Positions 44,136 to 64,000 of a stretch of 64,000 nucleotides of DNA are shown piece after piece (within the stretch, counting starts at the first letter, position 1; each line of letters begins with the position of its first letter). Source of the stretch: Lytechinus pictus (lineage: Eukaryota). The stretch is from NCBI RefSeq assembly GCF_037042905.1, contig NC_087245.1, positions 16,742,001 to 16,806,000 on the forward strand, written 5' to 3'. The notes beneath the pieces were generated by a model, which was not told the origin of the DNA, ran no database searches, and worked only from the letters and a program-made list of their open reading frames with translations. Made by a program: the position numbers and the translations under genes.

Positions 44136-47100
44136 ATGGCTACAGACGCCAGCGAAGTTCGAAAACAGCACCGCTTTGATGAGGAACGTCTTCATGAATA
44201 CCTGAAGGAGAATGTCGCGGACTTTCCTCAAGGATCATCAAAGATTGAAGTCCTTCAATATAGGTACGGTATCGCAATAGCTCCGCCCCAAAAACCGATG
44301 GAGCCTGAGCGAAATCTGGTGGATCGAATGCGGGGGAGCTCATGCGCTTGGCTATGCTAGGGCTAGTGTCATGAAATCGCGGCCGGGCGCCACTGTAGCT
44401 GTGCGGGTTCAGCAAACTGCAAAATACCACTGAACTCACAAAAACACTCTATACATGTACACCACACATTCATAAGCTCACTACCACACTACAAGATCAT
44501 CCAGCGACATGATCTGAACTCAAGTGAATTTGTCAAAATATTATCGAAGGTGCCAAGCCCAAAGGCTTAAGTTAAAGGCTTAAGTTAAAGGCAAAGCCAG
44601 GCATCATTGCCGTAACGTAGTGAGCCAAAGAGTTTGCCAGATATGTCATATTGGGAAAAATTTATGAAAAGTTGTGAGCGAGCAAATATATTACAAAAAT
44701 CCAATTATATTTGTGATAGAGTTTGAAGTACATGTAATTTTCAGAAAATATCACATTTCACCCTTCTCTTTCCTTTTCTCTTTTTTTTTTTTTTGGGGGG
44801 GGGGGAGAGCTAGTGCCCCCAATCTGTATGCCACTGCCAGACATGCAGGGGTAATTTTTCATGATAAGGTGATTAATGAATCTGCTTATCACATTTCTAT
44901 TTACCGCGGCACCAAGGAATCCTTTTGCAGCAAATGTAAACGAAGGAAATTGGTCTCCCAACTGGAGATTGAAGACTCCCCCATGCAACTTTTTCTCTGG
45001 TGATGTAAATAAGGATTTCTGCAGCAATATATGAACCATTGACTTTATTCTCTTAAATGAAAATCAGATCAGTTAACAAATGGAACAAATAAACTTACAT
45101 TGGCCTATTAAGTATAGAACTTCAAAGTTAAACTCATTTTTTCCATTTTTTACTTATATGTCATGTGTCAAATTTCTAATGATATGAGTGATACCCATTT
45201 ATGCTTACTGCTTTTGCTGAGTATGTTTTTTTTTTTGTCCCCTAGAACCTACTTGACACTTTCCAAATTACTTTCTGAAGGGATATCATTTTTTTACTTC
45301 AATTTTTTGTTTATATTCACCTCCGGCTGCTCACAGTTACTAGGGAATGTCTGCCCACAGGTGTACATACTCTATTTAAAAAGAAAAAAAGAAGATTGGC
45401 ATCAGTACTTTAGATGATAGATCTAGTAATATGTCCAATGCAAAAGGTAACAAGTTAGATTGAAAATGGCAAGACTGTTGGTGTACTTTTTTTTATAGAG
45501 AGCGCTATTAAAGTACTAGCAAGAAGGAGAAGGATTTTGAACCTGTGCCATTGCGTCATTGCAGCATAGCATAGAATATAGCTTTGACCACTAGACCACA
45601 AGCACTTGACTGCAAATACTCAGGTGTTCTAAACTTCAAGACTTTATATGGAAATACTATCCCTCCAATTCACTCTATATTTTTTCAATATCCTGGTAGG
45701 ATTCTTGTCAAGTTGAATATTTCTGTGATTTGCAAATGTAGCTGTTCTATCCAATACAGGTCAGGTCAGTCCAACCCAACCTTTTATCTGAAGAAAGATG
45801 GGAGAGAATTGGTGATGAGGAAGAAACCCCCCGGACAGCTTCTGAGGGGAGCTCATCAGGTATTCAATCTCTGATTCAATTTTTTTTTTTTCATAACATA
45901 TTCAGGAGACTAGATTTTTTTGTCTCACATTATAACATGTTATAAGATTACACAAGATATTAAAAATCAAATGTACAGATCCTTAAATATACATGAGGGC
46001 TTTTATATCTTGGTCATTTACATATTGATTAATGTAATTAATGAAATTGGTTGGATGAGCAAATTGAATGTTAAACATGTACTGCATTTCACATTTTTTT
46101 ATACATGGTTACTGGAAAGTGTGTGTGTGTGAATAGGGAGGGGGGCTTCTGAAACTGGTCAGAGAATTATTGTGGAACTAACTTAACTTTAATTTGTTAT
46201 GATATTCTTGATGAACTAACCATTTTTATATTTCTGCCTTTCATTTATACATTTCATTCGTGCTGTTTCATGCAAACCTGTAAATAGCAAAGAGTAACGT
46301 ATTGTAGAAAATTCTTTCTGAAGGAGTTTTTATACAATAGTTACAGCCCACATGGCACATATGACAACCAATATAATTTGTAATTCTAATTTCAGGTTGG
46401 ACGAGAATTTCGAATTCAAAAGGCGTTATTCAGTGCTGGTTTCCCAGTCCCAAAGCCGATTGCTCACTGTGAAGATGTCTCCGTTATTGGCACAGAATTT
46501 TATATCATGGAACATGTTAGGGTAAGTAATAGAGCCAATATCAAGCAATCTTTCAAAGAGTTTCAGAAGATGGTCAACCAAGGTGTACTCAAAATCACTG
46601 TCTCTCTTTCAAAGTGATTACAAACCACATCTACATGTACATGTATGCACTTGAGTTTTCTTGGGATCTCCATTAAAATTCTGCTCATTAATTCTTATTT
46701 TTCCCTGCACTCAGGATTCATTGTTTACTTAAAATTTCTGTAATTTTTCAAATTTTTTCGCGGCCACATAATATTTCATTAACAGATAATGCAATGATAT
46801 TTCTGGCTTGTACCCAGTATCATTCCATTTTACAGGTATTTTAATAACTGTAATTCCATTTCCATAGATTCACTTGACTTTTCTGATTTAATGACAGGGT
46901 CGTATCTTCCGTGATATTGCCTTGCCTGAGCTGACGCCTGGAGAGAGGAAGGATATCTACTTTGCTATGATCAACACCTTAGCTCATCTGCATAGTCTTG
47001 ATTTCAAGACGCTTGGTGTCCAAGGCTTTGGGAAAGAGGGTGGATTCTGTAGGAGACAGGTAAGCCCTTAAATATGATTTAACTCTGTGACATGAAAGAT

Positions 47101-50100
47101 ACAATAAAAGAGTACAACAACTTGTAATTTTAATTCTAGATGGTGAAGTCTAACAGTCACAATCAGTCATAGATATTAATCACAAACACATGAAATCAGA
47201 GGATATATCGGAAGTTTGTTTTATGTTGATTTTGATTATAAGGTTTGTTTGATAAAACATGCTCTGGAATCAGTATAATGGGTAAACAATGCCAAGTCTT
47301 TTTATTATATTTGAATGATTTCTCTTGTAGTTCATAACAAGGTTTGACTATCTTTGAAATTGATTTTAAAATTAATTTTTAAGAATTTTAATTTAGAGAA
47401 TATTGGATGGCCTTGAGTGGGATGCGAAGAAATATTGTACGAGGTGAAGAACAATATTGGATGAGTCGGAGATGAATCCAATATTGTTCTTAAGCGAGTA
47501 ACAATATTTCTATGCATCCCACGAAAATTAATCATCCAATATTATTATTTAGATACCCCCACAAAGCTAAACATAAATTAATAAAGCAAAACAAAGTTTT
47601 TAACTAACCATCATTTATGGCAAGCCTGTAAATCATGAGCATTGCGCCTGAGTATTGTCCGTTTTTAAAAAGAAATCTCTGTAAAGATGCGCTAGCGTAT
47701 AGTGCACGCGCATTTAAATTCAATAAATCGACGCAATCTCGCTCCGTTCCTCCTGCCAACTAATACGCAATGCAATTTCATTGTGACGTAACAGTAGCTT
47801 CATGCGCACAATCATTTATTAGCCAATGATAATCTTGTGGGTGGGGCAAAATATTCATTTCGTCCAATATTTTCAATATTGGATGGTTTTCATAGGCATG
47901 CAGGTTAAAAATCAGTTTCAATATTTTGTCTCTTTGAAACAACCTCGCAAGACATCAAAAAATATCTGCGCCTCTAAAACCCTACATCTAAATAATAATC
48001 AAAATTAATGGACACCCCCAACTTGAGGAGGATACTATTGATCATAGCCTAATATAAACGTTACTAGGAATATACTCCAAGGTATATATCAGTGAATTGT
48101 TTATTATTCATATACTTGTTACTGCCTAATTATATTCTGTCAGAACAGTGTATCCTGTTTAATTAGAAATGAGATAATCTATTCCTTAAAAGTAGCAAGC
48201 TACATTGAGCAAAGAAGCCTTAGTGACAGTGATTTCCCGTTTAGCTGGTAAATAAAACAAATTCTGATTGGTTCTTATACTTTTCATATAAAAATTCATG
48301 GAATTCACCTTTGTGAAACGGAATTTAGGTTTTTGCTGTGTACATTTTCAGTAACAGAACGGAATTTCCATTTTTAGATCAAGCTGAAACGGAATTACAG
48401 ATTTTCAGAAACGGAAGACATTTTTTTGAAACGGAAAATCACTGTCTCTACAAAGTGCAGTTAATGGGGATTTGTTGCATAGGTCGGTTTGGCTGTATCT
48501 CTTTCTTCCTTCAGATCAACACATGGACAAAGCAGTTCCAAGGGGCAATGAAGATAGCCTCTTTGCCAGAAGTCCCATCTGCTACACAACTCTTCCAGTG
48601 GCTGCCCAACAATATCCCAAGGAATACAGAGAGCACTACCATCGTGCATGGAGATTTCAGACTGGAGAATATGATCTTTCATCCTACAAAGGTGACTAAT
48701 GAGCATATTTTGTTCAAGGATTTAATTTTTATCTTTTGATGACCAAGTTTCTAAGATTTCACTCTGATTCAAATTTTTTTCATTGTGTTAAAATTTCAGG
48801 CATCCATATATTGGAATACCAGATTCCGACCTGTATAAAGGCAATGGAATCGTAAAAGAAAAATTTCCATTAGTATTAGTGGTTATTTTCATTTGCCATT
48901 TCACATTTACATTAGAAAACTACAAGAGTGTGACAATATAGGTTACATGATTGAACCCTGAGCTTCAAACATTGTTTTCTCCTTACTTTCTTAAACTGTG
49001 CTTTGTTTTTTCTTCATTCAATCAAGTAATTGAGTGGATTATTGTTAATCAATTTTGACAAATTTTACATTATTTTAAAGCTTAGGAAGTTCTTTTTCCA
49101 ACTAAATGAGCATCTCAAAATGCTTCGTCTACCGAGGTGCCCAAATATGTAACTCTATTGAATAGAAAATTCCCCCTTGTATCACTTTATATTCCTTTAA
49201 AACACATCTAAAAACATGCTCATCCCCCCTCATCCTGATTATTGTTGTTAGCAACGCCTGCATCATTTCCCCCCTCATTTCAATCCCTTAGCCCCTGCTT
49301 GAGTTTAGGTTATCATTAAGTTATTTTCAATTTGCTCTTTCAATTATTGCTTTTATATATATTTTGCTTTTATTATCATATTGTTTTTTTTCTTTTTTTT
49401 TTTTCTTTTCTTTCACCATTATTGTATGTTCTTATGATTTATGTCATATGACTTTGTGTTTTGTCATTACCATGTTTGATTGTATATTGTACATTTTTAT
49501 TGTTGTGTGTATGGACCCCTACGAAAAACAGCATGTGCTGATAGGGTGTTCCATCCCACAAGTGGTAAAAAAATTAAATAAATAAATAAAATTAATTTTG
49601 GTCGATTTATTGTTCGTTTTGGGGTTGCTGGTTAGATATTTTACCATGTGTGAACAAGGCCTCTATTTTCCATGTTACTGCTTTTATAGCCTGTGGTAAT
49701 TGCAGTACTTGATTGGGAGCTTTCAACCTTGGGCGATCCTCTGACTGATCTGGCTTATAATTGTGCTGCCTACTACTGGCCTGAAAACATGGACAACGCG
49801 ATGGGCAACCCTTTAGGTACGTATGTAGCTCCCGCAAACAATACCTTTGATGTCTTGAATGATAATGATATTCCAATTTTGTGTAGCACTTTATACAAAT
49901 CAATGTGATTTTATTTCATCACCATACAATTTTTCTCTACATGTAGGCGTCAGTTTCTTGCTTGCCCACACTCAATGTATGCACTCTCTCCATTCTTTGG
50001 AGAATTATCAGCAAGATCTTTCAAGTTCAAATTGCTAAGTGTACTATAATTGACTTTCACATCATTCCGGATACTCATGGAACACCTGGGTTGCTAGTGG

Positions 50101-53100
50101 CCAAGTGGAGATAGATGCCTTGCCAATTTGATTTTGCAGTAAATTTTTTATTTTTTTATTGTCTCACCTGCAAAGCAGAGTGAGACTATAGGCGCCGCTT
50201 TCCGACGGCGGCGGCGCCAACACCAAATATTAATCAAAGGTTAAGTTTTTGAAATGACAGCATAACTTAGAAAATATATGGACCTAGTTGATTAAACTGG
50301 GACATAAGGTTAATCAAGTATTACTGAACATTCTGCCGGAGTTTCATGTCACATGACCAAGGTCAAAGGTCATTTAGGGTCAATGAACTTTGGCCGAGTT
50401 GGGGGTATCTGTTGAATTACCATCATAACTTTGAAAGTTTGTTGGTCTAGTTCATAAAACTTGAATATAACAGTTATCAATTATCACTGAACATTCTGTG
50501 CAAATTTCAGGTCACATGACCAAGGTCAAAGGCCAATGAACTTTGGCCATGTTGGGGGTATCTGTTGAATTACCATCATAACTTTGAAAGTTTATGGATC
50601 TGATCCATAAAAACTTGGACATGATAATAATCAAGTATCACTTAACATTCTGTGTGAGTTTTAGGTCACATGACTAAGGTCAAAGGTCATTTAAGGTCAA
50701 TGAACTTTGGCCATGTTGGGGGTATTTGTTGAATAACCATCATAACTCTGTAAGTGTATGGATCTAGTTTATAAAATTTTGACATAAGAGTAATCAGGTA
50801 TCACTGAACATTCCATGCGAGTTTCAGGTCACATGACCAAAGTCAAAGGTCATTTTGGAGGTAATTATTAGATTGCTGTAATAACTTTCAAAGGTTATAG
50901 ATAGGCCTATAGTTTATAACATGTGGATATAGGGATAATCAAGTATTACTGACAAGTCTTAGGTCGCATGCTTAAAAAAAGCTTAAGCTGCCGCTTCCAG
51001 TGCATTCATGACATTAATCGTGCCAGGTACCCTCATGAATCTCTCCTGGGTTGAGTGCAGCACAATGTGAGTAAATTTCTTGATGAAGGAATGCATGACA
51101 TTTATAGGATTGGAACTCATGCCCCTCTATTTGGAAGATGAGATAAAACTTAGGTAATACTGATATATATATATATATATATATATAGGCCTACATCCTA
51201 AGAAAGGGCGAAGTCTATGAATGGGTTCATTCTGTCATTATACACATATAGACGTAAAGACGAAGGTAGAGGGCGTTAAGGCGCATTATGAACATTGAAA
51301 GAAGACAACAAAATTTGCCTTAAGCACAGATGAAGAGAAATATATATTTACATTCTGCGTGTTGGACACAGATGAGATAAAATAGGCAAAGAGGTAATGC
51401 AATGTTATAGTTCCAACAAAGTTTATTTCGAAGTCCAAATTTTCGACTAAACCTCCCGTCTCCTTCAGGGATACAATGCTCAAGCAATGCTGTGAGCATT
51501 GCTCAAGCTCAAGCAATTGCTCTATACTCAAGCAATGCTGTGAGCTTTATTGTATCCCTGAAGAAGATGTGAGGTTTACGTCACAAATTTAGACTTGGAA
51601 ATAAACTTTGTTGGAACTATAACAATGCATTACCTCTTTGCCTCTTTTATATATATATATTTACATATAGAGAGAGAGAGAGAATCAGCATTCAGCATTT
51701 CCATAGAAGTGTGGACTATTCCTATCAAGTCAGGATTTAAACCCAAATTTACTACCTTATGGAAAATACATGTCCCACCTGATGTCTTCATGTGATTGAT
51801 TTCTCTTACCAGCTGGAGGAAGCAATGCTCCTGTGAGTTCTGTACCAGGAATACCAAGCAAAGAAGATTACATGAAGGTCTATTGCACCCGTATAGGTGT
51901 ACCTTACCCTATCCAGGACTGGCAGTTCTATTTGGCTTTGGCTTACTTCAGGGCAGCATCTATTTGTGAAGTGAGTTGAATTTGTTATTGTATAACTGTA
52001 CTAGGAAGCAAAGTACGGGCAACTAATCCATGCTTATGTAGTGCCCAGTAGTTACTTTATTACAAGTCCTGAAGCATCTGAAGGGTGCAGCATATTTACC
52101 TTGGCGTTAAGAACAGCTGTAACGTACCCTGATAATTTAATTGAATGAAAGTCTGCCTGATCCCCATGAAGCTCACATCATTTTACTTGCTTTTCTGTAT
52201 GATTTTGTATTCATATGTTATTGTAATTATTGTGTGTGCAGTATGATGGTGGAATAAAAATCATTCAAGACATTCCAAAAGTAATACCAAACCTGCGAAT
52301 ATCATTGTAGGGGTAAGCTAAGATAATTTTCACACTACAAAATGGTTTACTGGTATTGGACAGTGTAACCTTTATCATGATATCTGATGTACATATATGT
52401 TAAAAAATTAGTGAACTGCATTTGGCATTGACTTACTTGGTGGTCCATGTAATTTGTGTACCTTATTAAAGCAAACACAAGTAAGATTTAAGAATAATGT
52501 TTAATTTCTATGAAAAAGATGTTTTAACCTCTTTTTTTTTTTTTGGGGGGGGGCACCAAAGACAACCCTTTTTCTAATATTACTTTTTCAGAGATGCATA
52601 TTTTGTAACCAAATGCATTTCTCAATAAAGTAACATTGATTGATGGTATCCCATTTGGTACTGATGTCATGTTTAGTTAATCTTGATTTGCATTTGATAT
52701 CTCCTTGTAGGATCTATTCATACTTGATCTTGATCTTCACACACACACACACACTTTATTGAGAGATAGTCAACTTTACCAAACAGACAAACATTGATTC
52801 AACTATCTTTACCAATTGTGTGCGAGTGTGAATGCATTTATCATGAACTTTCACACACATACTAGGTGATTTGCCATTTTGCTCACTATCTTCATAGATG
52901 CAATCAATAATTGTACAATTGATAACAACTGTGCATGTGTGGTAAACAATGTTCATATAATTTTAGTTCATTGTTGATATTGATTTTATCTCTTTATGTT
53001 ACAGGGCCTTGACCTGAGGTCCCTTGAAAGACCTTGCTTTGTTTTGTTTGTGTAGTATGAACGCATCTGGCGTGATGATGATCTTTACTCTGAGTACATG

Positions 53101-56100
53101 TATACAATTGATAGCATGTTTGCCTTTTGTTCCGGGTCAATGGATCTTGTCAATGTCATGAAAAAGATCAGTTTCTTTTATTTGGTTCCAATTTATGAAG
53201 AAAAAAAATGGTTATTGTTTGCAAGGCACTATTCCCAGTGAATATACCCATTCCTGTATCAGGAGTGTAAGGTCACAACAAAGACCTTGATAGAGTATGA
53301 ACACATTCAGCTTCCCCAATGGACTTTGCCCCTTGATATCGAGGCGTTGTTTACATTGCTTTATCTTTCCTTTTCATCTGCATTACTAGGGAGTATATGC
53401 TAGATCCAAGCTCGGAAACGCCAGTTCCGAGTCAGCCGAAACATTAGGTTATGTTGCAAGACTTTTAAGTGATGCCAGTCTTCAGATCGCCAAAGGGTTA
53501 GTTGACATTTCTTTGTATTGACCAGGTTTTGTTTTCTCTCTGTGTTGTATTACTAGGGTGTGTATGCTAGGTCAAAACTTGGTAATGCAAGCTCTGAAAC
53601 GGCTGAGACTAGAGGAGCTGCAGCAAAGCTTCTTTCTGATGCTAGTCTGCATATAGCTAAAGGGTACGGTCAGTTTGTTTGCTACACGTAGGTTTACCAA
53701 CAATGTTTTATCACAGTTTGTTAAGTGTTTGAAAAATCTTGGAAATCATGATCACCTGTACATTTCATTAAAAAAGTAGCTGCATGTGATTTTCAATGTT
53801 CAGAAAATACATAATTTGGATCTGTTCATGTATCTGTAAATGTGTGGTTGTTTAACCTGAGGTTCAGTTTTATTTTTGATTCCAACAAGACAATTACAAT
53901 TACTACAAGACAATGGAAAATAGGAAAATTCTGGCTTTTTAAGTTATACATGTACATAGTTTTAAAAATCATTAATGTGGACAATATTGATAGTAAAGAA
54001 ATGATGGAACTGATAATGCCACACTTAACTGTTTGTACATGAATTGAATGAACTAAATTATGATAATGAAAAAATATGGCATATTGCTGCTATGATGTCA
54101 TTGATTCTCATTTGCATACTGACCTCCTTGTGCTTATCAATATTTTCTACCATATGTTAATATCAAATAAAAAATGTTGTTTTTCTGCTTATCAATGGAT
54201 ACATCTCTCTAACCACCAAATTTTTTAATCCACTTCAATCAGCTCGATGTGTGTTATTATTGTTAGTGTTTGTTCTGCCATTTTTATTATTTTTTTGCAT
54301 TTACTTGACTTTAAGTTTCACTCATATTGTCTCATATTTTGGAACAAGTTTTAATCATAGTTCATTGATTTCATTTTACTTCTGTCCTAGATATATTTCA
54401 TCGTCCGAGGTGTCAGTCATTGATTCTTGAAGCAAAAATGTTATGATTGCTGTTGTCTAATTGTTATATCAGTTTATACTTCACCATCTACTTGACTTTA
54501 ATTTTTTTTGGGTACCTATTCTCTGTTTTTAGCTTTGAAATGTTTATGTAACAGTATTTTTACTGGCCTAGATCTGGCTTTAATTACATTTTGACACATT
54601 CCCTCTCCATTATTTGTTGTCAGTCAATATGTCGGTGAATGTTTTTTAAAGCAAAGATAATTAATTTGATACTTTCTTGATTAAACATTTTAGAACTGAT
54701 ATCTGAAGGGGAATGGTGAGTGGAAGGAGGGGGGGGGGGTGTGTCAGATATACCCTACGTAAAATTGTAGTCTATCCCCCCCCCCCCTTCTTCAGTCGAG
54801 TTAATCCAAATTGTATTCATGAATTCATCTTCAGATCCACATCAAATGCCAAGAGACCATTGACAAGTTCTTTAATTGGAGACATCTATCCAGCTCTTGC
54901 CATGCAGCCATTGTCTGATAGGGGGAGGGACCTACTGCAAAAGGTCACCGACTTCGTCAAGAAGGAGATCATCCCTGCAGAACCGGTAAGGGTAGTGTTT
55001 CACCAAATATGAATTGATTTCAAACATTTATGTAACCCCTGAATGCAATGAGACATTTTTTTTTAATTGTTGGAGATAGAAATTGAACCAGAATACACAG
55101 ACATGCCAATGATGAATATTGATTTTATGTATAAACCAAGGGGTGTTTTATGAAGTGAAGTCTTTTGTTGGTGAAACATATCCTATTCTATATTAATATA
55201 ATAAATGAATACGTCTCATTTGATGTATTAATTAAAGGGTTTCCCCTGTCTGCCATTTTCTTATGAATGTCATTGTTGGTTGTAGAACTTCATAATTATT
55301 CTAGGCACTTCTACATTGTTGCACTTTCTCTTCTTGCCTGAAGTATCCTTGGATGACATTTTTCGAACAGTCCATTGCAAATCATTTAGAAAATCGTGCA
55401 AAATTTCCATCAATTCAAATATACAAATTAAATTTGAAAATATTCATAAATGCTGGAAAACTACTAGTATGTCAGAATCGTCACATCCAATCTTCTAATT
55501 CATTTTTTCTATGCTCTTGAACCCTGTCAAAATTGTGGCAATTATTAAGGAAATTATTATTTTACTGCTAGGGATCACCCAAGGCCATTTAGTATGAACT
55601 GTTATGGTCACAAGATGGCATGCTGTAACTAAATTCCGCAAGCTGGCATTCATGGTTGGGTTACTATTAGTATTTGGGAAGAATTTCAAGTTTGTTCATC
55701 TCTTGTTTCATATTTTGTCCAGATATTCGAACATCATATAAAAACAGCAAAGGACCCATGGACGATTCCACCTATAATGGAAGAACTTAAGGTGAGTGAG
55801 TCTATATCAAAAGTATATGAGAAATTCAATGTTTAGGGCCCCATAACACGAAGCTAATTGATTGGCTTTGTAATTGATATGTTTGATTGATTGCTTATAA
55901 TCATCAATACAGGTGATAACAATAAGCCCTACTATCTATCACTATGTGGTTTTTATTACCAAGCCATGATCTGTTGTCTGGTGAACTTTGTTTGTGTGGT
56001 GATATTCTAGAAGTTTTGAACATGTTTAGGGTCAGAGGTCAAGTTCAAGTTGTACTTCAAATGAATATTTATTCTCTTCCATTTCACATCAGATGACTAC

Positions 56101-59100
56101 ATGTCTTTTCAGAGTAAGTGTAAAAGAAGAGAAAAGAAAGAGAAATGATATTTTAAAAAATAGTGGATAAAAATGAAGGAATATACCTATGGGATAAAAA
56201 TGCTTGCCAAAGATCTTTTGCCAAACAGCCTTCCTTAACTAGTTCATGTAGTGCTTGCTCGTTGTATGTACACATATTCTTGAGAGTTCCCTAGAACACA
56301 GCCATGTTCTACTCACAGAATTGGGTCCTGTTTCATAAATACTTGCAATAATAACAAATGCACAATTTCTATAACAAGTTTACTATCAGCCAATCAAATT
56401 TACAATAGCTTCAAACTGTTATTGCAATTTTAACAAGTTTTATGAAATGGGTACCAGGGGCCCGTGACGCAAAGGTTATAAATGATCGTAGAACATTTTT
56501 CTTCAATTGATTCCATTGAATACAATGTACAATCAATCGTAGAAATCAAGGGTATGATTAATCGCTAACCTTTGTGTTACGGGACCCAGATGTTCTTTTT
56601 TTTCTGATTAATATCATGGAAACCTTGGGAATGATGTGGGTGCATGAATGGATTAACTTAGCTCTCTTACAAGTACCTTTGGGTACTGTAGTAAATTGAA
56701 GCCCCCGAATTACTACTGTTCCTTATTTCATTGACACTACTACAGGCCAAGGCTAAATCAGCAGGGTTGTGGAACCTGTTTCTACCATCCGAATCCGGTT
56801 TGACCCAGTTGGAGTATGCGTACATGGCAGAACAGATGGGAAGATCTCCCATAGGACCAGAACCATTCAACTGTGCTGCCCCAGGTAAACTTTCATATGC
56901 CATGTTCCACATATCACCATTGCCTGGCTCAAAACGCACAATAAGTGGGCCAAAATTGATTAATGAGGGGTCATTGGTACAATTCGAAAACAAAGAAATT
57001 CTAAGTTTTTAATAGAACAACTTAAATGATGTGAAGAAGAAATTCAGAGAGAGGTTTGAAGAACAAAAAAAAAATGGGTTGATCAAAGTGTGGTGTTCAC
57101 TGAAGCATTCTTTGTGCATGCTGTCTTTCCTGCGTAATAATCCCACAAGCATCTTTTAATCGCCAACCCTTGCAATTGAAAACATGAGAGAAAGTCAATA
57201 TGAAAAATGCTTAGAGCCTTTGTAGTGGGACTTGTGCTAAAAGATTCAACACATACTATTGGTTAAAGGTGCCTTGATAGCCATATGCATTAAAGACCCG
57301 CTACTGGCATAATGCCATGCTCATCTTGCTAAATCTGAGTAATTTCCCACTTCCCACAAGAATCATTTGGCACATAATTCATAAATCATTTTGTTGGATA
57401 AGGTTAGAAATCATGTTGTGATTGTTACCACGGCTGGCCCTTTTCTATAATGTCTTCAGATACCGGTAACATGGAGGTCCTACACCTGTATGGCACTCCT
57501 GAGCAGAAGGAGAGATGGTTACGTCCTTTACTAGAGGGTCGTATCAGATCATGCTACTGTATGACTGGTAAGTAGTGTATCTTCATAATGAACTTTTTTT
57601 TATAATTTTGTTTTTATTGAAAAACAATCATGAAAAATCACAATATTTGCACGTAATTGTTGCAAGATTAGAGTACAAAATCACAGAAACCAGAAAATAA
57701 AAAGTAATGAAAAATGGCAGAACAGAGACTGAAACGCTTCTCATTCAAGGGTGAAACTCTGGGTTCCGTATTTGATTTAAACCCTAAAAAAATCACTTAT
57801 AGATACATATTTACACTTACCTTCTTCTCTTAGTTTGTTTAATGCTTTATCATATATACTTATATGTCTTTTGCACATTATCAGTTGTTCCCCATTCTTT
57901 TCCTTTTTTCCCCCACTCTTATGCACCAGTTTATTATGCCTTTCTTTGTAACCTGTTTGACCCACCTCTCACTAATTCTCTAGTTATTCATCCCTCTATC
58001 ACTGTTTTGTTCCAGATCCTGTTTGATGTTGCCTGCCTCATTATCTTAATCCCTCTTGGCCTTACTTACACTAACTTCCCTTTGTGTCTGCCTACTCCTT
58101 TTCTTTCATCCCCTTCACTAACCTGATTGGTCTTCTCTACTTACTAATGCCCCTTTTGTCTCCTTGTTTCTAGTGTTGCTGTAGCTTGTTTGTGGTCTAT
58201 ATTATGGTTGTTCCACTTTATATATTTGTCATTTTGCCTCCGACAAAGATTCTGCTAGGATCGAAAGCTTAGGCCCCTTTTTGACTCCCTAAAAAAATAC
58301 AACACTTCCCTTTGATGTGCACAACCTACATTTCTTTGATATCTTGATGATTAACACCCCAACGTATGATGTGATATTATATTTTTCAACTTTTCCCTTT
58401 ATCCTGTTTCCACCATGTGTTATATTTCCTTCTAGAACCTGATGTGGCCTCCAGCGATGCTACTAACATGGAATGCACCTTCACCAGAGAAGGAGATGAG
58501 TATGTCGTCAATGGAAAGAAGTGGTGGAGCAGTGGTAGGTTCATCCCATGAATATGACTACAGGGGTGTGGAGGAATTAGTAAATGCCTTGCTATGAGCA
58601 GTGGGGTTATACATGTATACTCAAATAATGTTGTAATGTTTGTTAAGTGTTTTTGTGCCCCTTATTTTTAACTAATTGAAGAATCATTTTAGGACCACCA
58701 TCATAGTAATAACATGTATACTGATTATCACTTAAAGACAAATGGAAGTAGTTGCAGTCAACACCTGATTTCATGGGAAAGTCTGCAAAACCAAGGTTGT
58801 AACTATATCATCGTCGATATAGATCTGGTACAGTTTTACTAACTGAACTTTTGAAATCCTGAAATCTAATCTGAAAACTATTACACTGAAGATTACCAAC
58901 ACAGATAAACAAGAGTTGGACAGTGTATTATTATTTCTTGGAATAATACTTGACATTTTGCATGAATCCAATTTCTTTTGCCAAGTTCTCAGCAGTGACA
59001 CAGTGTTTTCGAGATTCCTTTCACACGTATCTTTATTCATGTAAACAGACACGTGGGTGGTCATTTGACTGGATTCTATACAAACTCATTTTGAAATCAT

Positions 59101-62100
59101 TACCACAACTGGCATGTATCTTTAAATTCCTAATGGTTGTGGAGATGAATGTAAGAATATGTTAATTTACATGTTGGTTATCACTTGCTTTGTAAAATTA
59201 ATATTTCTTTGAACCTGCAGTACATCAAATGGATGATAAAATTCAAATCTTGTGTAATCCTGGGATACAAATCAAGACACTTACACCTCTAACGGCAATT
59301 GAACTTTGCTTTTCAGGTGTTGGACAGGTAGAAGAAACTAGAATATTGTCATCTGAATGATGGCTTATGCCATGGACTGTTGAAAGTAGTTTGTTTGTGT
59401 GTTAAACAAGTGAAGGAGCTCTTCATCAATACATGTTGGAACAAATGGCCATGATTTACATTAAGGGGGTAACAGGTGTCTCAGCGTTTTGCCTGTATAA
59501 GAAATGCACTGAAATTCTTCAGAAATCATGAATGGAATATGATATGATAATACTGGAATTAATCTTTGAATTAACATAGTGTTTCTGGATGTATTTTCCA
59601 TAGGTGCTGGTGACCCAAGGTTAGGTGTTGCCATAGTGATGGGTCGAACTGGAAATAAAGATTCTGCTACGTAAGTGCATTGATTCATACGTACCTATGT
59701 GTTCTCTTTTTAAACTATTCTGGTATCTAGCTATTATCAAGTCTTCTGTGAATGAAGATGTATGCATCCCTTGGTTTGTCTTATGGGTTTAGACCACAGG
59801 AAGAATTTGCCAGATGTTTTATTTGATGTATCTGACAAAGTCTGTTTTATCCACCAGTTGCTGAATTTAAATTCAGACACCAGTGGTGCTCAGCCAATCA
59901 AAATCAAGGAAAGTTCTCAGTCTACATATGTTGATAAAATCGTATTTAGCTCCATAATGTATTTTCTGTCATTACTTTGTCAAAAATTTAATAAGTATAT
60001 TTTTTATTTCTTTACATAACCTTGTATGTTGTCTTTCTTTCAATATTTGTTTGCATGCACAGTATACATGGCGATTACTTTATGTTCATTTTATTCAATT
60101 GACTATACTGCAGGCATAAGCAACATAGTATGATCATCGTTCCAACTGATGCACCAGGGTTTATCAAAGTGAGGCCTCTATCGGTATTTGGGAACGTAGG
60201 TAAGAATACAGCAAGTATCACTGACCAATTTGTTTATTTTTTTTACCTATTGGTTCTTTCTGGTACTCTCCTATGAAATTTTGTTGTTGTTTAATGTATA
60301 ATATTTTTAGAATGTGGCATAACGAAAAGACATTGGGGGAGGCTCAAAAATTTTGCATCATCACTTGATGGCGTAGTTACTAAAGGGGTATGACATGCTA
60401 ACAATTATATGATTTGAACAGAGACTAAAATCAAACAAAACATTGTTCCACACAAGTTTGGCAGTTCTGTGGATGCTGCAGCCAAGATTTTGCGTTTAGA
60501 TTTGAAAAGCCCCTCATCCACTTTGTATAAAGAACATACATTCTGCAATGCCTGGTTGTCATCTACTCTCAGAGTTGTAATTGCCTTTATAGCAAGGCAA
60601 CAGAGAACATGTAGGCTTCGAAATTGAAATCTGGGTTCTATCTCACCGATAAAGTAGACGGCTTTTCTATAGTAGGCTTCTGGACATCTGTACTGAGCCT
60701 GTTCAACACCCTCATCTATTTGGCGGGGTGGTTTCCTCTTCCTCAGTAATACTGGACCCCTAATCTCGTAGTTTGTATCTTTCAAAGTATTTTTAATTCT
60801 TCAAACTTCTTCCGTTTTTTTGCCACAGCATATTGAAGTCCCTTCATCCGCAGTGTTACAAAATTCCTAGATACAGAATGTACAGTCACCTTGGCATGGA
60901 CTACATCCATATCTGCTCGCTGTAGATATCTGCTGAATGAATCTACCTGGCCAACTTCCAGGACTGTCAGACATACATGAAATCCTGTTAACAAAGTCCT
61001 CTTGCATCAACAGCAACTTTTGGATTCGGGTCATCCTCGATTTCAAGAAGAGCTTGATCAGATTTGGTGAGGTTACGTTATCCACAGTTGCTTTTATAGC
61101 AGAATATCGGCATGACCATCTGATTACACTCTGGCCTTTCAGCTGTTCAGCTCTCTGACCTGGTTCCCTCTGAATCTTTTCCAATGTTTCATGATGCTTG
61201 CAACTTCCTTCAATGAACTTGTAGAGTGACTGTATATAACCAAGGCAGTTTCATAGTTCAGGGTTGCTTGAGATACTCTGCTGTAGCACCAAGTAGAGTC
61301 TGAGCATGGCATTGCAAATAGATTGACTGTGGGGCAACTTTTTTTCATTCTTGGTGCAAGGCCAAGTGTCTTCCCACTCATGTCACTGGTGGTGCCATCA
61401 TGCCCTTCTATGACAAGGTTCAGTAGCTTGAAGCTAAGGGATGAGAGAGTGTCAGTTAATAACTCATAAAGTTGCTCTCTGGTTTGAAATTGTGTATCAT
61501 AAAACCCTATGAAATCTTTCCATCATGCACCATCAATGCAGATTGTCATGCTAACAGATACCTGTACGTTCTGGCTGATATTTGCAGTCTTGTCAACAAT
61601 TACTCCATGGTACTCTGCTTTCTTGGTCTCATGACAAATCCTTTCAATGCATCAATCACCAAGAAGTTTCAGTGGCTCATTTTGAGTTGCTGGAGGAAAC
61701 CAAGCAGGACCATGATCCTTCCTGCTCAGTTTATTCCTTATACCTGACCTGTCACTACATCTAAGAACAAGCATTCCAAGGAAATTTCCCGTTTTTAGCT
61801 GATACATTTGCAACATGCGACCGATCTGTCTGCAAAAAGCAATTTTTTTTTTGCTGCAAAAGGCTAGAGTGTGAATTATTGACTTCAAATTGTGATTGAT
61901 TCTTTTCAACTTCAGCTGTGTGAAGATCACAAGTAGCATTTACTGACAAAACAACCCCTTGCCAGTTCTCCATCTGCACTGCTGAGGTAATGCCTCCCTT
62001 GTACGCCCTATACACTAGTAATACAAATATGTCAGTGTCATCACTGAAGAGCATATGATACAACAGTGACATCAACTTCCTCATGTTCATAGAGGTAATC

Positions 62101-63556
62101 GTTCTGACTGTTCGTGGTTGTTTGATCTCCATAGTCAAACGTTGAGAGGAGAGCAGAGAGTTGTCTCTTGTTCTTATTCTTCATGACCGTTTCTCGGCAA
62201 GGCGGATCTGTCTGAGTGAGGTTGTAATCAGTGGATCCTGCACCACCACGCTGAATTCTTTCCTGGTCCTTTGGGGAAAGCTCTTCATACTGTAGTTGTC
62301 AAACACAAGCACTTTTTGGGAGTCACTGTACTTTTCAAGTCTCCTCCTCATGGATGCTGCCAGAACAGAAACATTACCACTTACGGGCCATACGAGATGG
62401 TATAGGAGGTGATGGTTCACTCTGAGATACACTTAATGGAGTACGGCGGGGTATTAATCACCTTCAGTAATAGTTCTAGATAAACTTGTTTTTGAGACAG
62501 AGGATTGTGTTTTGTTTCCAACTGTATGTTTGTTTCGTGCTTGTTAATTATGTTTTTTACTCATATCATCCTCATCTGGTAATTCATTTCATCTTATATT
62601 TAGGTTCCATGCACACAAATAACATGGCCATTGTCCATGGGTGGTGGAGCAGAGGATTATCTGCCGCCCATGCCATTGTCAATCATAATGCCCTTTTCGT
62701 AAATACTATTATATATCTCTATATAACTCTATATATGTCCACTTTGATTAGTTCATGACACATGTCAATGTCGAAGAACCTAAATTATCCAGATATTAGA
62801 TTTAAACATTTTAACTGAATTATATCTTGAAAAGCCACCCCATGATATAGATTAAATTATGTTAATTAGATATGGAAATGAGAAGAATGTGATGTACTCA
62901 CATCAAAGTACTTGTTCCAAGAGATGAACACCTCATCAGGATGTACATGTAGAAAAGTATGACAGTTTGATATCACAGGGTTATTTTTAAAGACTTCCTT
63001 TTTTTAGGTTGATGATTGATATTTGAAAATATGCTTATCAGGTTCATTTGAATAATGAAATATCTATAATATCAACTTAATTTACATATTAAAATGATAA
63101 TGAGCCTTAAAACTTATTTTCACATATTGTGGACTACACTCATTATGTTCTGTCACCAATATTTTCAGACTTGTTTATATAGATACAATTCATGAGCAAT
63201 ATGCTTATTATCTCATTGTGTTTTTTTATGCTAATTACATCAAATACATTCCTCCCATGGTTACCAAGGTGGCAACCAAGCTAAAACTACTTCAAACCCT
63301 ATCTAGAACACAAATCAACCCCAAAAACCGTGTACCTACCAACTTTTCCGGGTCATGTACATGGCTTATGGGGCTGTCTACTGGACTGAGGATGAAAAAT
63401 GTTTTGTCAAGTTTTCAAAGTAACTTCCTTGTACTTCTTGAATGACTGGCTTTAATTATAGCATATGTATCTCTCTTTGGCTATCAGATGCACCCCATGG
63501 ACATTTTGAAGTGAGATTTGACAATGTTAGAGTGCCTGCCTCCAACATCATTTTAG
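44136..63556 (+). CDS. ACAD11: Acyl-CoA dehydrogenase family member 11-like (APH-type kinase domain + ACAD domain, no N-terminal HAD domain); 3' end lies beyond the window
   Basis: Exons 44136-44263, 45760-45859 (GQSNPTFYL...RKKPPG), 46396-46521, 46898-47059, 48515-48691 (HGDFRLEN), 49690-49816 ([17 protein letters not shown]), 51813-51970, 53390-53496 or 53557-53663, 54835-54985, 55723-55791, 56746-56884 (GLWNLFLP...FNCAAP), 57460-57567 (DTGNMEVL), 58436-58534 ([11 protein letters not shown]...NGKKWW), 59604-59670, 60114-60199, 63488-63556 ([14 protein letters not shown]). All phases are compatible. Confidence 0.9.
50161..50970 (+). mobile_element. Second (3'-truncated) copy of the HINE-like repeat with internal tandem subrepeats
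   Basis: Starts gtctcacctgcaaagcagagtgagactataggcgccgc, homologous to 26686. Repeated tcacatgaccaaggtcaaagg units. Confidence 0.7.
51377..51650. repeat. Inverted pair of ~100-bp Penelope-like terminal fragments, each with a decayed hammerhead motif
   Basis: 51377-51477 is the diverged reverse complement of 51549-51650. Each arm has a tcc-ctgaag(a/g)-stem-gaaa/acaa-attt-(g/a)ga layout. Confidence 0.6.
53390..53496 (+). CDS. ACAD11: ACAD11-like alternative exon 8a (107 nt)
   Basis: ttactag|...|gttagt; encodes [35 protein letters not shown]. Confidence 0.8.
53557..53663 (+). CDS. ACAD11: ACAD11-like alternative exon 8b (107 nt)
   Basis: ttactag|...|gtacgg; encodes [35 protein letters not shown]. 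Confidence 0.8.
56457..56587. mobile_element. Small MITE
   Basis: ggggcccgtgacgcaaaggtta ... taacctttgtgttacgggaccc imperfect TIRs. Confidence 0.55.
58236..58274 (+). ncRNA. Degenerate minimal hammerhead ribozyme motif (Penelope-type)
   Basis: gcct-ccgacaa-agattc-tgcta-ggatc-gaaa-gctt-aggc. Stem I, stem II, GAAA and the palindromic aagctt are present, but the core differs from CUGANGA at two positions. Confidence 0.5.
60400..62700 (-). pseudogene. Frameshifted remnant of a transposon-like coding sequence with PIN/FEN1-XPG-like acidic motifs, in an ACAD11 intron
   Basis: Coding-like composition. Ordered minus-strand motifs in shifting frames: VFDNY (62292-62306), KDQERIQR (62248-62271), HEEVD (62071-62085), [10 protein letters not shown] (from 62045). 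Boundaries are approximate. Confidence 0.5.
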
Positions 63557-64000
63557 GTAAGAAAATGATTTTGTCTTGTTCTTTTTCTTCACCAACCTAT
63601 TGTACTTGTATGTCAATGTATAACACAGAAAATATTTTTTCTGTTTTCTTTTGGTAAAGAATATTTTGTAATGTATGGCCCAGGATGACATGTGTTGATA
63701 TGGTGTGATGTAGCATTTGAAAGTGAGAATGTAGTTAAGTCTGCATAAGTCAAGTTCAAGCCTCCTTCAGTAATAAAAGTAAAAATCACCTGAAATGAAA
63801 TATAAAGCAGTTATTCATATAAGATCATGCAAAACATGTTACTTAATTCTTTTTGCAGGATAGTGCGAGGTCTGGAATTATCTAGAATTTAGATCAAATA
63901 TGGCATTTGGGGCAACTCATTAACATGGGGGGGTTGTATAAAACAAACAATGCATGTGTTCTTGTGCATAGAGGACCTAAATAAAGAACTCTGTGCTCAA

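Follow-up and report, generated by a model that had tools for sequence, protein, structure and literature searches.

Tandem duplicated exon substitution, as described in the relevant parts of PMC9741552 and PMC5740500, involves homologous exons of equal length and phase that are used one per mRNA, with a frameshift on double inclusion. The exon pair described here, in the ACAD11 gene of the sea urchin Lytechinus pictus, is alike in length, phase and frameshift, and very likely also in its use of one copy per mRNA. As presented in those parts, the MXE catalogues cover human, fly and worm, and convergent tandem exon duplication in orthologous genes is well documented (PMC9741552), whereas the present case concerns a probable convergent event on the same exon in an echinoderm and a cephalochordate. 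Another similar system is the pair of exons 4a/4b of OGDH (PMC7969005), in which a metabolic enzyme likewise has a duplicated pair with a branch point less than about 50 nt from the upstream donor. The OGDH branch points are given in that account as mapped, 25-41 nt from the upstream donor and distant from the acceptor, whereas in ACAD11 the intron is only 60 nt long and the branch point is predicted. Exons 2/3 of alpha-tropomyosin, cited as reference 35 in PMC7969005, are a further comparison case.

At the protein level, the comparison is with mammalian ACAD11 (8v3u/8v3v; PMC12440821, PMC11342911, PMC13596139), which is also a kinase-ACAD fusion with intact motifs. Its substrates, according to the portions of these three papers that deal with them, are 4-hydroxyacyl-CoAs and 1-O-alkylglycerols, and phosphorylation of 4-hydroxyacyl-CoA or alkylglycerol was demonstrated for mammalian and worm enzymes only. 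The link between the 4-hydroxyacyl-CoA kinase activity and the acetyl-CoA-stimulated alkylglycerol kinase activity is called unclear in PMC13596139, and the crystal structure of a bacterial homologue is described there as having no ligand density. The vertebrate clusters hold one version of the exon 8 segment, whereas the urchin has two. RefSeq already contains X1/X2 isoforms of three urchins with the same two exons, one per isoform, as database models only. No paper on the exon pair, its lock or its function was found in a literature search outside of which most subscription journals lay. ACAD11 was absent from the supplements searched of PMC9741552 (one short file, maybe without tables), PMC5740500 (10 files) and PMC5703972 (6 files). 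The entries for human ACAD10 in the MXE catalogue are intronic candidates unrelated to exon 8. This is a real and conserved exon pair of a known kind, already annotated, and the swap of the corresponding segment in three amphioxus species, probably through a duplication of its own, is what is new. The original prediction had mentioned neither the annotation in three urchins nor the amphioxus segment swap.

The window, a 64-kb stretch of L. pictus DNA, contains an ACAD11-like gene on the forward strand. Its coding exons 1-16 (44136..63558, +) encode residues 1-625 of 787, the remainder lying beyond the window, and the duplicated exon is coding exon 8 of the gene model. The coding segments of the window match RefSeq XP_054752621.2 (L. 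pictus X1) exactly, exon by exon, over residues 1-625. The encoded protein has an N-terminal APH-type kinase followed by an acyl-CoA dehydrogenase and no HAD domain (Pfam APH + Acyl-CoA_dh), with the kinase-ACAD motifs HGD(F/Y)R, DWE and HHCMR and the catalytic Asp intact. The L. variegatus orthologue matched PDB 8v3v with E 3.9e-266. The gene is thus ACAD11, a kinase-ACAD fusion without a HAD domain, in agreement with the identity first proposed. When the exon 7 peptide (52 residues) was used as query, two clusters were found among 8 candidates, with members that include equal-length X1/X2 pairs. The L. pictus X1 and X2 proteins differ only at six positions, all in exon 8. Upstream on the same strand lie a PDE12-like gene (PF21171; 34822-40937, +) and a secretin/adhesion-type GPCR gene (PF00002; 25300-29430, +).

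Exon 8a (53390..53496, +) and exon 8b (53557..53663, +) are each 107 nt long and encode residues 327-362, the former in RefSeq isoform X1 and the latter, with Arg345, in isoform X2. They are separated by an intron of 60 nt (53497..53556, +) and are flanked by the constitutive exons 7 (51813..51970, +; donor GTGAGT) and 9 (54835..54985, +), of which the first encodes, at its end, most of helix 310-333 and the second encodes the interdomain linker and the start of the ACAD domain. Each copy opens with a full codon, and its last two bases are the first two of a Gly codon. The acceptor ends in ATTACTAG in both cases, and the donors are GTTAGT for 8a and GTACGG for 8b. The two neighbouring, homologous exons agree in length and phase, their splice sites are valid, and every detail of this arrangement was as the original prediction had given it. 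The frame is intact through exons 7, 8a and 9 and through exons 7, 8b and 9. Reading with both copies, or with neither, runs into stop codons, as had also been anticipated.

The peptides of 8a and 8b share 29 of the 35 residues encoded by full codons, and the six differences (S341T, L345R, Y347A, V348A, R350K and Q358H, 8a to 8b) are exactly those named beforehand. At the nucleotide level 72/107 positions are identical, and 22 of the 29 codons for identical residues are changed synonymously. Nei-Gojobori analysis gave pS 0.875, which is saturated, against pN 0.142 (Fisher p 2.7e-12). Both copies are under purifying selection, as judged from these sequences, and are conserved in relatives; this bears out the selection claim already made. 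The similarity is not due to chance, the two exons matching each other at E 2.6e-14 with the next-best match in the window at E 0.44. No third copy of exon 8 was found within the 64-kb window. An assembly artefact as the origin of the duplicate was rejected, because 35/107 bases differ, mostly synonymously, and the pair recurs in three species. At residue 344 (53441-53443 and 53608-53610), both Lytechinus copies have Thr and both Strongylocentrotus purpuratus copies have Ala, a pattern that suggests parallel change or gene conversion between copies.

Four raw-read RNA runs were mapped to 51750-55049, using about 6% of each of three runs from organism A (X21, X22 and X23) and 25% of one run from organism B (X24). 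The depth was about 1-10x, and joints were listed from 3 reads with 2 starts upwards. The joint between exon 7 and 8a (51970-53390) was covered by 0/6/1/7 reads in X21/X22/X23/X24 (3/4 runs), that between 8a and exon 9 by 15/5/1/12 reads (33 in total; 4/4 runs) and that between 8b and exon 9 by 0/2/0/6 reads (8 in total; 2/4 runs). All listed joints of exons 7, 8a, 8b and 9 are GT..AG. Both copies are spliced into mRNA, and the claimed use of both exons was thus observed directly. The mean depths on 8a/8b were 8.5/0, 8.2/1.4, 3.5/0 and 10.2/8.6 in the same order of runs, 8a being the major and 8b the minor form in the runs sampled. In organism A, 8b accounts for 2/23 joint reads, possibly from one molecule. 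The share of 8b varies, from 15:0 (8a:8b) in X21 to 12:6 in X24 (Fisher p 0.02, with mates not independent and with species and library both differing). Reads of X24 carry G377E and Y380S, as do the L. variegatus proteins, and X24 therefore appears to be from a second species. Nonsynonymous variants were also seen in this run, namely E340Q and A355V in 8a, G346E in 8b, and others in exon 9.

Among the four junctions proposed for counting, 51970-53390, 53496-54835 and 53663-54835 were found, but 51970-53557, from exon 7 to 8b, was not listed in any of the four runs at a depth of about 1-10x and with joints under 3 reads hidden. With a mean of 6, a count of 2 reads or fewer has a Poisson probability of 0.06, and X21 has 0 joints between exon 7 and 8a beside 15 between 8a and exon 9; the missing joint is within the noise of these RNA data. 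The full path 7-8b-9 rests on the RefSeq X2 models. Joints between 8a and 8b or between exon 7 and exon 9 were likewise not listed in the four runs, at the same depth and threshold. At 52970-53010 RNA reads form a short pile in each of the four runs, and in the stranded libraries most of them lie on the opposite strand. The pile has various loose ends on either side, its sequence is present once in the window, and it is probably a short dispersed repeat from other transcripts.

In the intron between the two copies, adenosines stand at positions 4, 9, 11, 21, 25 and 28; the sole later ones are at 53, 56 and 59. Between a branch point and the AG, a distance of roughly 18 nt is required. Adenosines 53, 56 and 59 are too near the 8b acceptor, and every adenosine at least 18 nt upstream of it lies 4-28 nt from the 8a donor; a usable branch point is therefore at most 28 nt from that donor, whichever is used. 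The best candidate is the A at 53521, within one of the two TTGAC motifs, which start at 53502 and 53518 as had been noted. The steric threshold between donor and branch point is about 50 nt in the vertebrate work covered by the relevant parts of PMC5740500 and PMC7969005. All other introns of ACAD11 within the window measure at least about 370 nt. The geometry originally proposed, with branch-point candidates very close to the 8a donor, is borne out, all of them falling at 4-28 nt. Because the threshold is a vertebrate one and the branch point is only predicted, we infer a steric lock between the 8a donor and the 8b branch point as a likely device. The frameshift on double or null inclusion is a second filter beside it. 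With a view to competing base-pairings of the docker/selector kind, the local RNA fold of 53330-53720 was compared with that of shuffled sequences and was no better (z -0.08). Within the intron, at 53524-53527 and 3 nt past the best branch candidate, an AG is directly followed by GT; its use as an acceptor would shift the frame.

Mutual exclusivity of 8a and 8b is very likely. In its strict form, this part of the original prediction draws on the logic of the frame, the steric geometry, the RefSeq models and the lack, at low depth, of a listed 8a-8b joint; the joint from exon 7 to 8b was not listed either.

The exon pair is already annotated in RefSeq for three urchins, with X1/X2 (8a/8b) pairs in L. 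pictus (XP_054752621.2 / XP_054752629.2), L. variegatus (XP_041477024.1 / XP_041477031.1) and S. purpuratus (XP_030830485.1 / XP_030830486.1). The expected conservation of both exons in related species was thus found in L. variegatus and S. purpuratus. Full-length X2 models exist in the three species, and those of L. pictus and S. purpuratus appear in two versions of the annotation. RefSeq isoform models usually rest on RNA evidence. The peptides of 8a and of 8b are each identical between L. pictus and L. variegatus, whereas exon 9 differs. In S. purpuratus 9 differences separate 8a from 8b, and T341, R345, A347 and K350 mark 8b in both genera. Between Lytechinus and Strongylocentrotus, 8b has 4 differences and 8a has 7.

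The wider distribution was assessed in 19 multi-member groups from protein clusters, with at most 15 members listed per cluster. Two versions of the segment within a species were found, among the members listed, in 3 of the 19 groups (Lytechinus, Strongylocentrotus and Branchiostoma). One version was found among the members listed for Diadema, Asterias, two sea cucumbers, a crinoid, a hemichordate, Trichoplax and Acropora, as well as for three vertebrate ACAD11 groups and five ACAD10 groups. The clusters of Patiria, Acanthaster and Amphiura have a single member each, and silence of an annotation is not genomic absence. Among 23 candidate short fragments from other urchins there were 2 matches, neither of them holding exon 8. 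In amphioxus, equal-length isoform pairs differ at 16-17 residues, all within the segment homologous to exon 8, and this swap was found in B. lanceolatum, B. belcheri, B. floridae and hybrid records, as proteins only. Isoform X3 of B. belcheri and of a hybrid record (P0155, P0146; residues ~419-460) exchanges a further block of 13 residues where the ACAD domain begins, which suggests a second duplicated exon pair in amphioxus ACAD11. The urchin exon homologous to that block (56746-56883) was found in one copy only in the window. The Asterias X1 and X2 records (P0019/P0136, P0135/P0137) differ by one serine at residue 361, at the 3' boundary of the exon homologous to exon 8; judging from the proteins, this looks like a tandem splice-site shift.

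In a tree of 35 columns both urchin copies grouped with the single Diadema exon (support 98/95). A clade of the two L. pictus copies alone was rejected (p-AU 0.0025), and the duplication therefore predates the split between Lytechinus and Strongylocentrotus. The Diadema split is given as 250 My in the pertinent section of PMC7299941, and the urchin duplication may have occurred before or after it. Urchin copies share 25-29 of the 35 residues across types, whereas urchin and amphioxus copies share 13-17. Clades of amphioxus copy 1 with either urchin copy were rejected (p-AU 0.0015 and 0.0016), and a clade of urchin 8b with amphioxus copy 2 was not rejected (p-AU 0.133). A single ancient duplication shared with amphioxus is disfavoured by the two rejections, a view qualified by the short alignment (35 columns) and by the strict way in which a clade was defined; gene conversion could mimic this result. 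Independent duplications in urchins and amphioxus are the simplest reading of these alignments. The homologous exon was probably duplicated separately in amphioxus, where the exon duplication itself is read from proteins.

The AlphaFold2 models had a mean pLDDT of 90.2 for the full-length 8a protein and 94.5 for the 8b kinase. In these models the exon 8 segment starts in the final part of helix 310-333, continues through the conserved GNASS loop and takes in the last helix (340/342-360). All six 8a/8b differences fall on this last helix, which runs straight into a low-confidence linker (365-384). The fold of the kinase model matched known structures through residue 363, with 3dxp in the lead (Z 37.4, rmsd 2.3, 324 aligned), followed by 3ats (Z 27.6), the substrate-bound steroid kinase 9fsg (Z 27.2), choline kinases and APH(2'') enzymes. 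The matches of the full-length fold search were filled by the ACAD domain, and the exon 8 peptide alone gave 0 matches against the PDB. In the relevant part of PMC3691515, the helical subdomain of APHs is described as framing substrate recognition and the C-terminal helix as shaping the specificity pocket; a similar picture is given for Cph (PMC10730852, in part). From their order in the model, helices 168-186, 193-204, 310-333 and 340-360 would be the APH helical bundle. The changes would then sit on the last helix of the subdomain that frames the substrate in APH-fold kinases, and the pattern of residues fits a ligand-facing surface.

Residues of this helix were counted over distinct segments from 368 fetched proteins, ten records with an Arg copy being excluded. 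Basic residues occur in 0/201 segments at position 345 and in 0/197 at 352; in this set, Arg at 345 is confined to urchin 8b and Arg at 352 to amphioxus copy 2. The two positions are 20 degrees apart on a helical wheel. In the 164 fused segments other than the Arg copies, R/K occurs 0, 5 and 0 times at 345, 348 and 352. A bacterial stand-alone set was also compiled, comprising 83 kinases from the best 80 of 597 confirmed loci and 82 distinct segments, and here R/K occurs 11, 37 and 2 times, with some segments showing an R-G-A run like that of 8b. A basic residue at any of the three positions is thus found in 45/82 stand-alone against 5/164 fused segments, a contrast that would also fit a face hidden under the linker or the ACAD domain in the fused enzymes. 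Arg on this helix face occurs in bacterial kinases and is therefore a viable state of the family, not damage. D/E was counted 0, 1 and 0 times at 345, 348 and 352 in both sets, and the exposed neighbours (340, 343, 344, 347, 350, 354 and 358) take both charges. Such a hydrophobic-or-basic but not acidic pattern would fit, at about even odds, a surface that faces an amphipathic anionic ligand such as acyl-CoA. The stand-alone kinases are mostly hydrophobic at 345 (52/82) and at 352 (78/83), which suggests that these residues pack within the kinase domain. Mutual information on 137 sequences placed the covariation of 345 and 352 at noise level (z ~3). Columns 185 and 326 covary (z 7.5; urchins have Lys185 and Glu326, the family mostly Gln326), consistent with a contact within the helical subdomain. 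Fundulus ACAD11 (P0130, P0325) and PDB 3dxp have Lys or Arg at the equivalent of 348, between the two Arg sites. The published CoA model, as given in part of PMC12440821, names R86, R176, D220 and N225, none of which is in exon 8. ACAD10 and ACAD11 differ in this helix but handle C6 and C10 alike in vitro, according to the section of PMC11342911 concerned.

These observations may be brought together in one explanation. Exon 8 of urchin ACAD11 was tandem-duplicated, and each of the copies enters mRNA, probably not both in the same molecule. The 60-nt intron would be too short for removal, and binding of U1 to the 8a donor would probably preclude that of U2 to the 8b branch point, and the reverse; double or null inclusion would shift the frame and lead to removal by nonsense-mediated decay. 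Exon 8a keeps the hydrophobic face of the family at 345/348/352, and 8b places Arg at 345 beside smaller residues. This face has about an even chance of lining a groove for an acyl-CoA or lipid substrate. If it does, 8b would be suited to ligands that are shorter or more anionic, or would bind the CoA phosphates in another way, and 8a would prefer a longer hydrophobic ligand. In amphioxus a separate duplication of the exon would have brought Arg to position 352, on the same face but two turns further along, which is considered likely. Tuning of the substrate by the 8a/8b helix, read from sequences and models, might equally be right or wrong, and the same balance applies to the explanation as a whole, that is, a pair with single-copy use in which the helix difference alters binding by the kinase.

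Other explanations were weighed against it. With the exon pair real and mutually exclusive, the helix face may tune docking or motion (kinase against linker or ACAD tetramer, or closure of the helical subdomain) and not a groove, so that 8b would loosen the kinase from the dehydrogenase and alter the hand-over of the phospho-intermediate. The direct junction of the helix with the low-confidence linker fits this, as do the kinase domains, ordered in one cryo-EM state and unresolved in the other in the structural account of PMC12440821, and the excess of basic residues in stand-alone over fused segments. Yet positions 345 and 352 are mostly hydrophobic in stand-alone kinases, and acidic residues are nearly absent, unlike on an ordinary exposed surface; a docking role is possible but rather doubtful. 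Both copies could also be kept for a partition at the splicing level, by tissue or stage, with near-equivalent proteins in which the arginines are tolerated and not selected. The mere six differences in L. pictus, the tolerance of R/K at 345 in 11/82 bacterial kinases, the nonsynonymous variants segregating in X24 and the shift in 8b share from X21 to X24 would agree with this. Such equivalence is nevertheless judged unlikely, given that the 8b-specific residues are kept in two genera, between which 8b changed less than 8a, and that two lineages put Arg on the face where 0/164 other fused segments are basic at those two positions.

It might further be supposed that 8b is a relic in rare use, or that it mostly joins 8a in unproductive transcripts. 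The joint from exon 7 to 8b is not listed, 8b is absent from X21 and X23, and by the depth arithmetic of X24 one or two reads could have crossed the 60-nt intron. This is highly improbable in view of the saturated synonymous divergence with few replacements, the full-length X2 models (three species, with L. pictus and S. purpuratus each represented by two versions of the annotation), and the near-equal depth of 8b and 8a in X24 with no 8a-8b joint listed.

The splicing device itself is textbook, and the apparent repeated exon duplication in two deuterostome lineages adds a metabolic-enzyme case to the convergent exon duplications. The natural isoform pairs offer ready-made controls: within one helix they differ at 6 residues in L. 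pictus, 9 in S. purpuratus and 16 in amphioxus, the rest being identical, and they point to three positions, 345/348/352, on the ACAD10/11 kinase. On a bolder and rather doubtful reading, urchins and amphioxus may have independently duplicated the specificity-helix exon of ACAD11, each giving one copy an Arg that reaches the same spot, and one gene would then switch between substrate modes by splicing. If true, these modes would be, for example, long-chain or ether-lipid versus short or anionic 4-hydroxyacyl-CoA, which bacteria would keep in separate stand-alone kinases, and positions 345/348/352 would be the determinant that explains the dual activity of ACAD10/11. The apparent convergence on one helix face is the part that deserves the attention of specialists.
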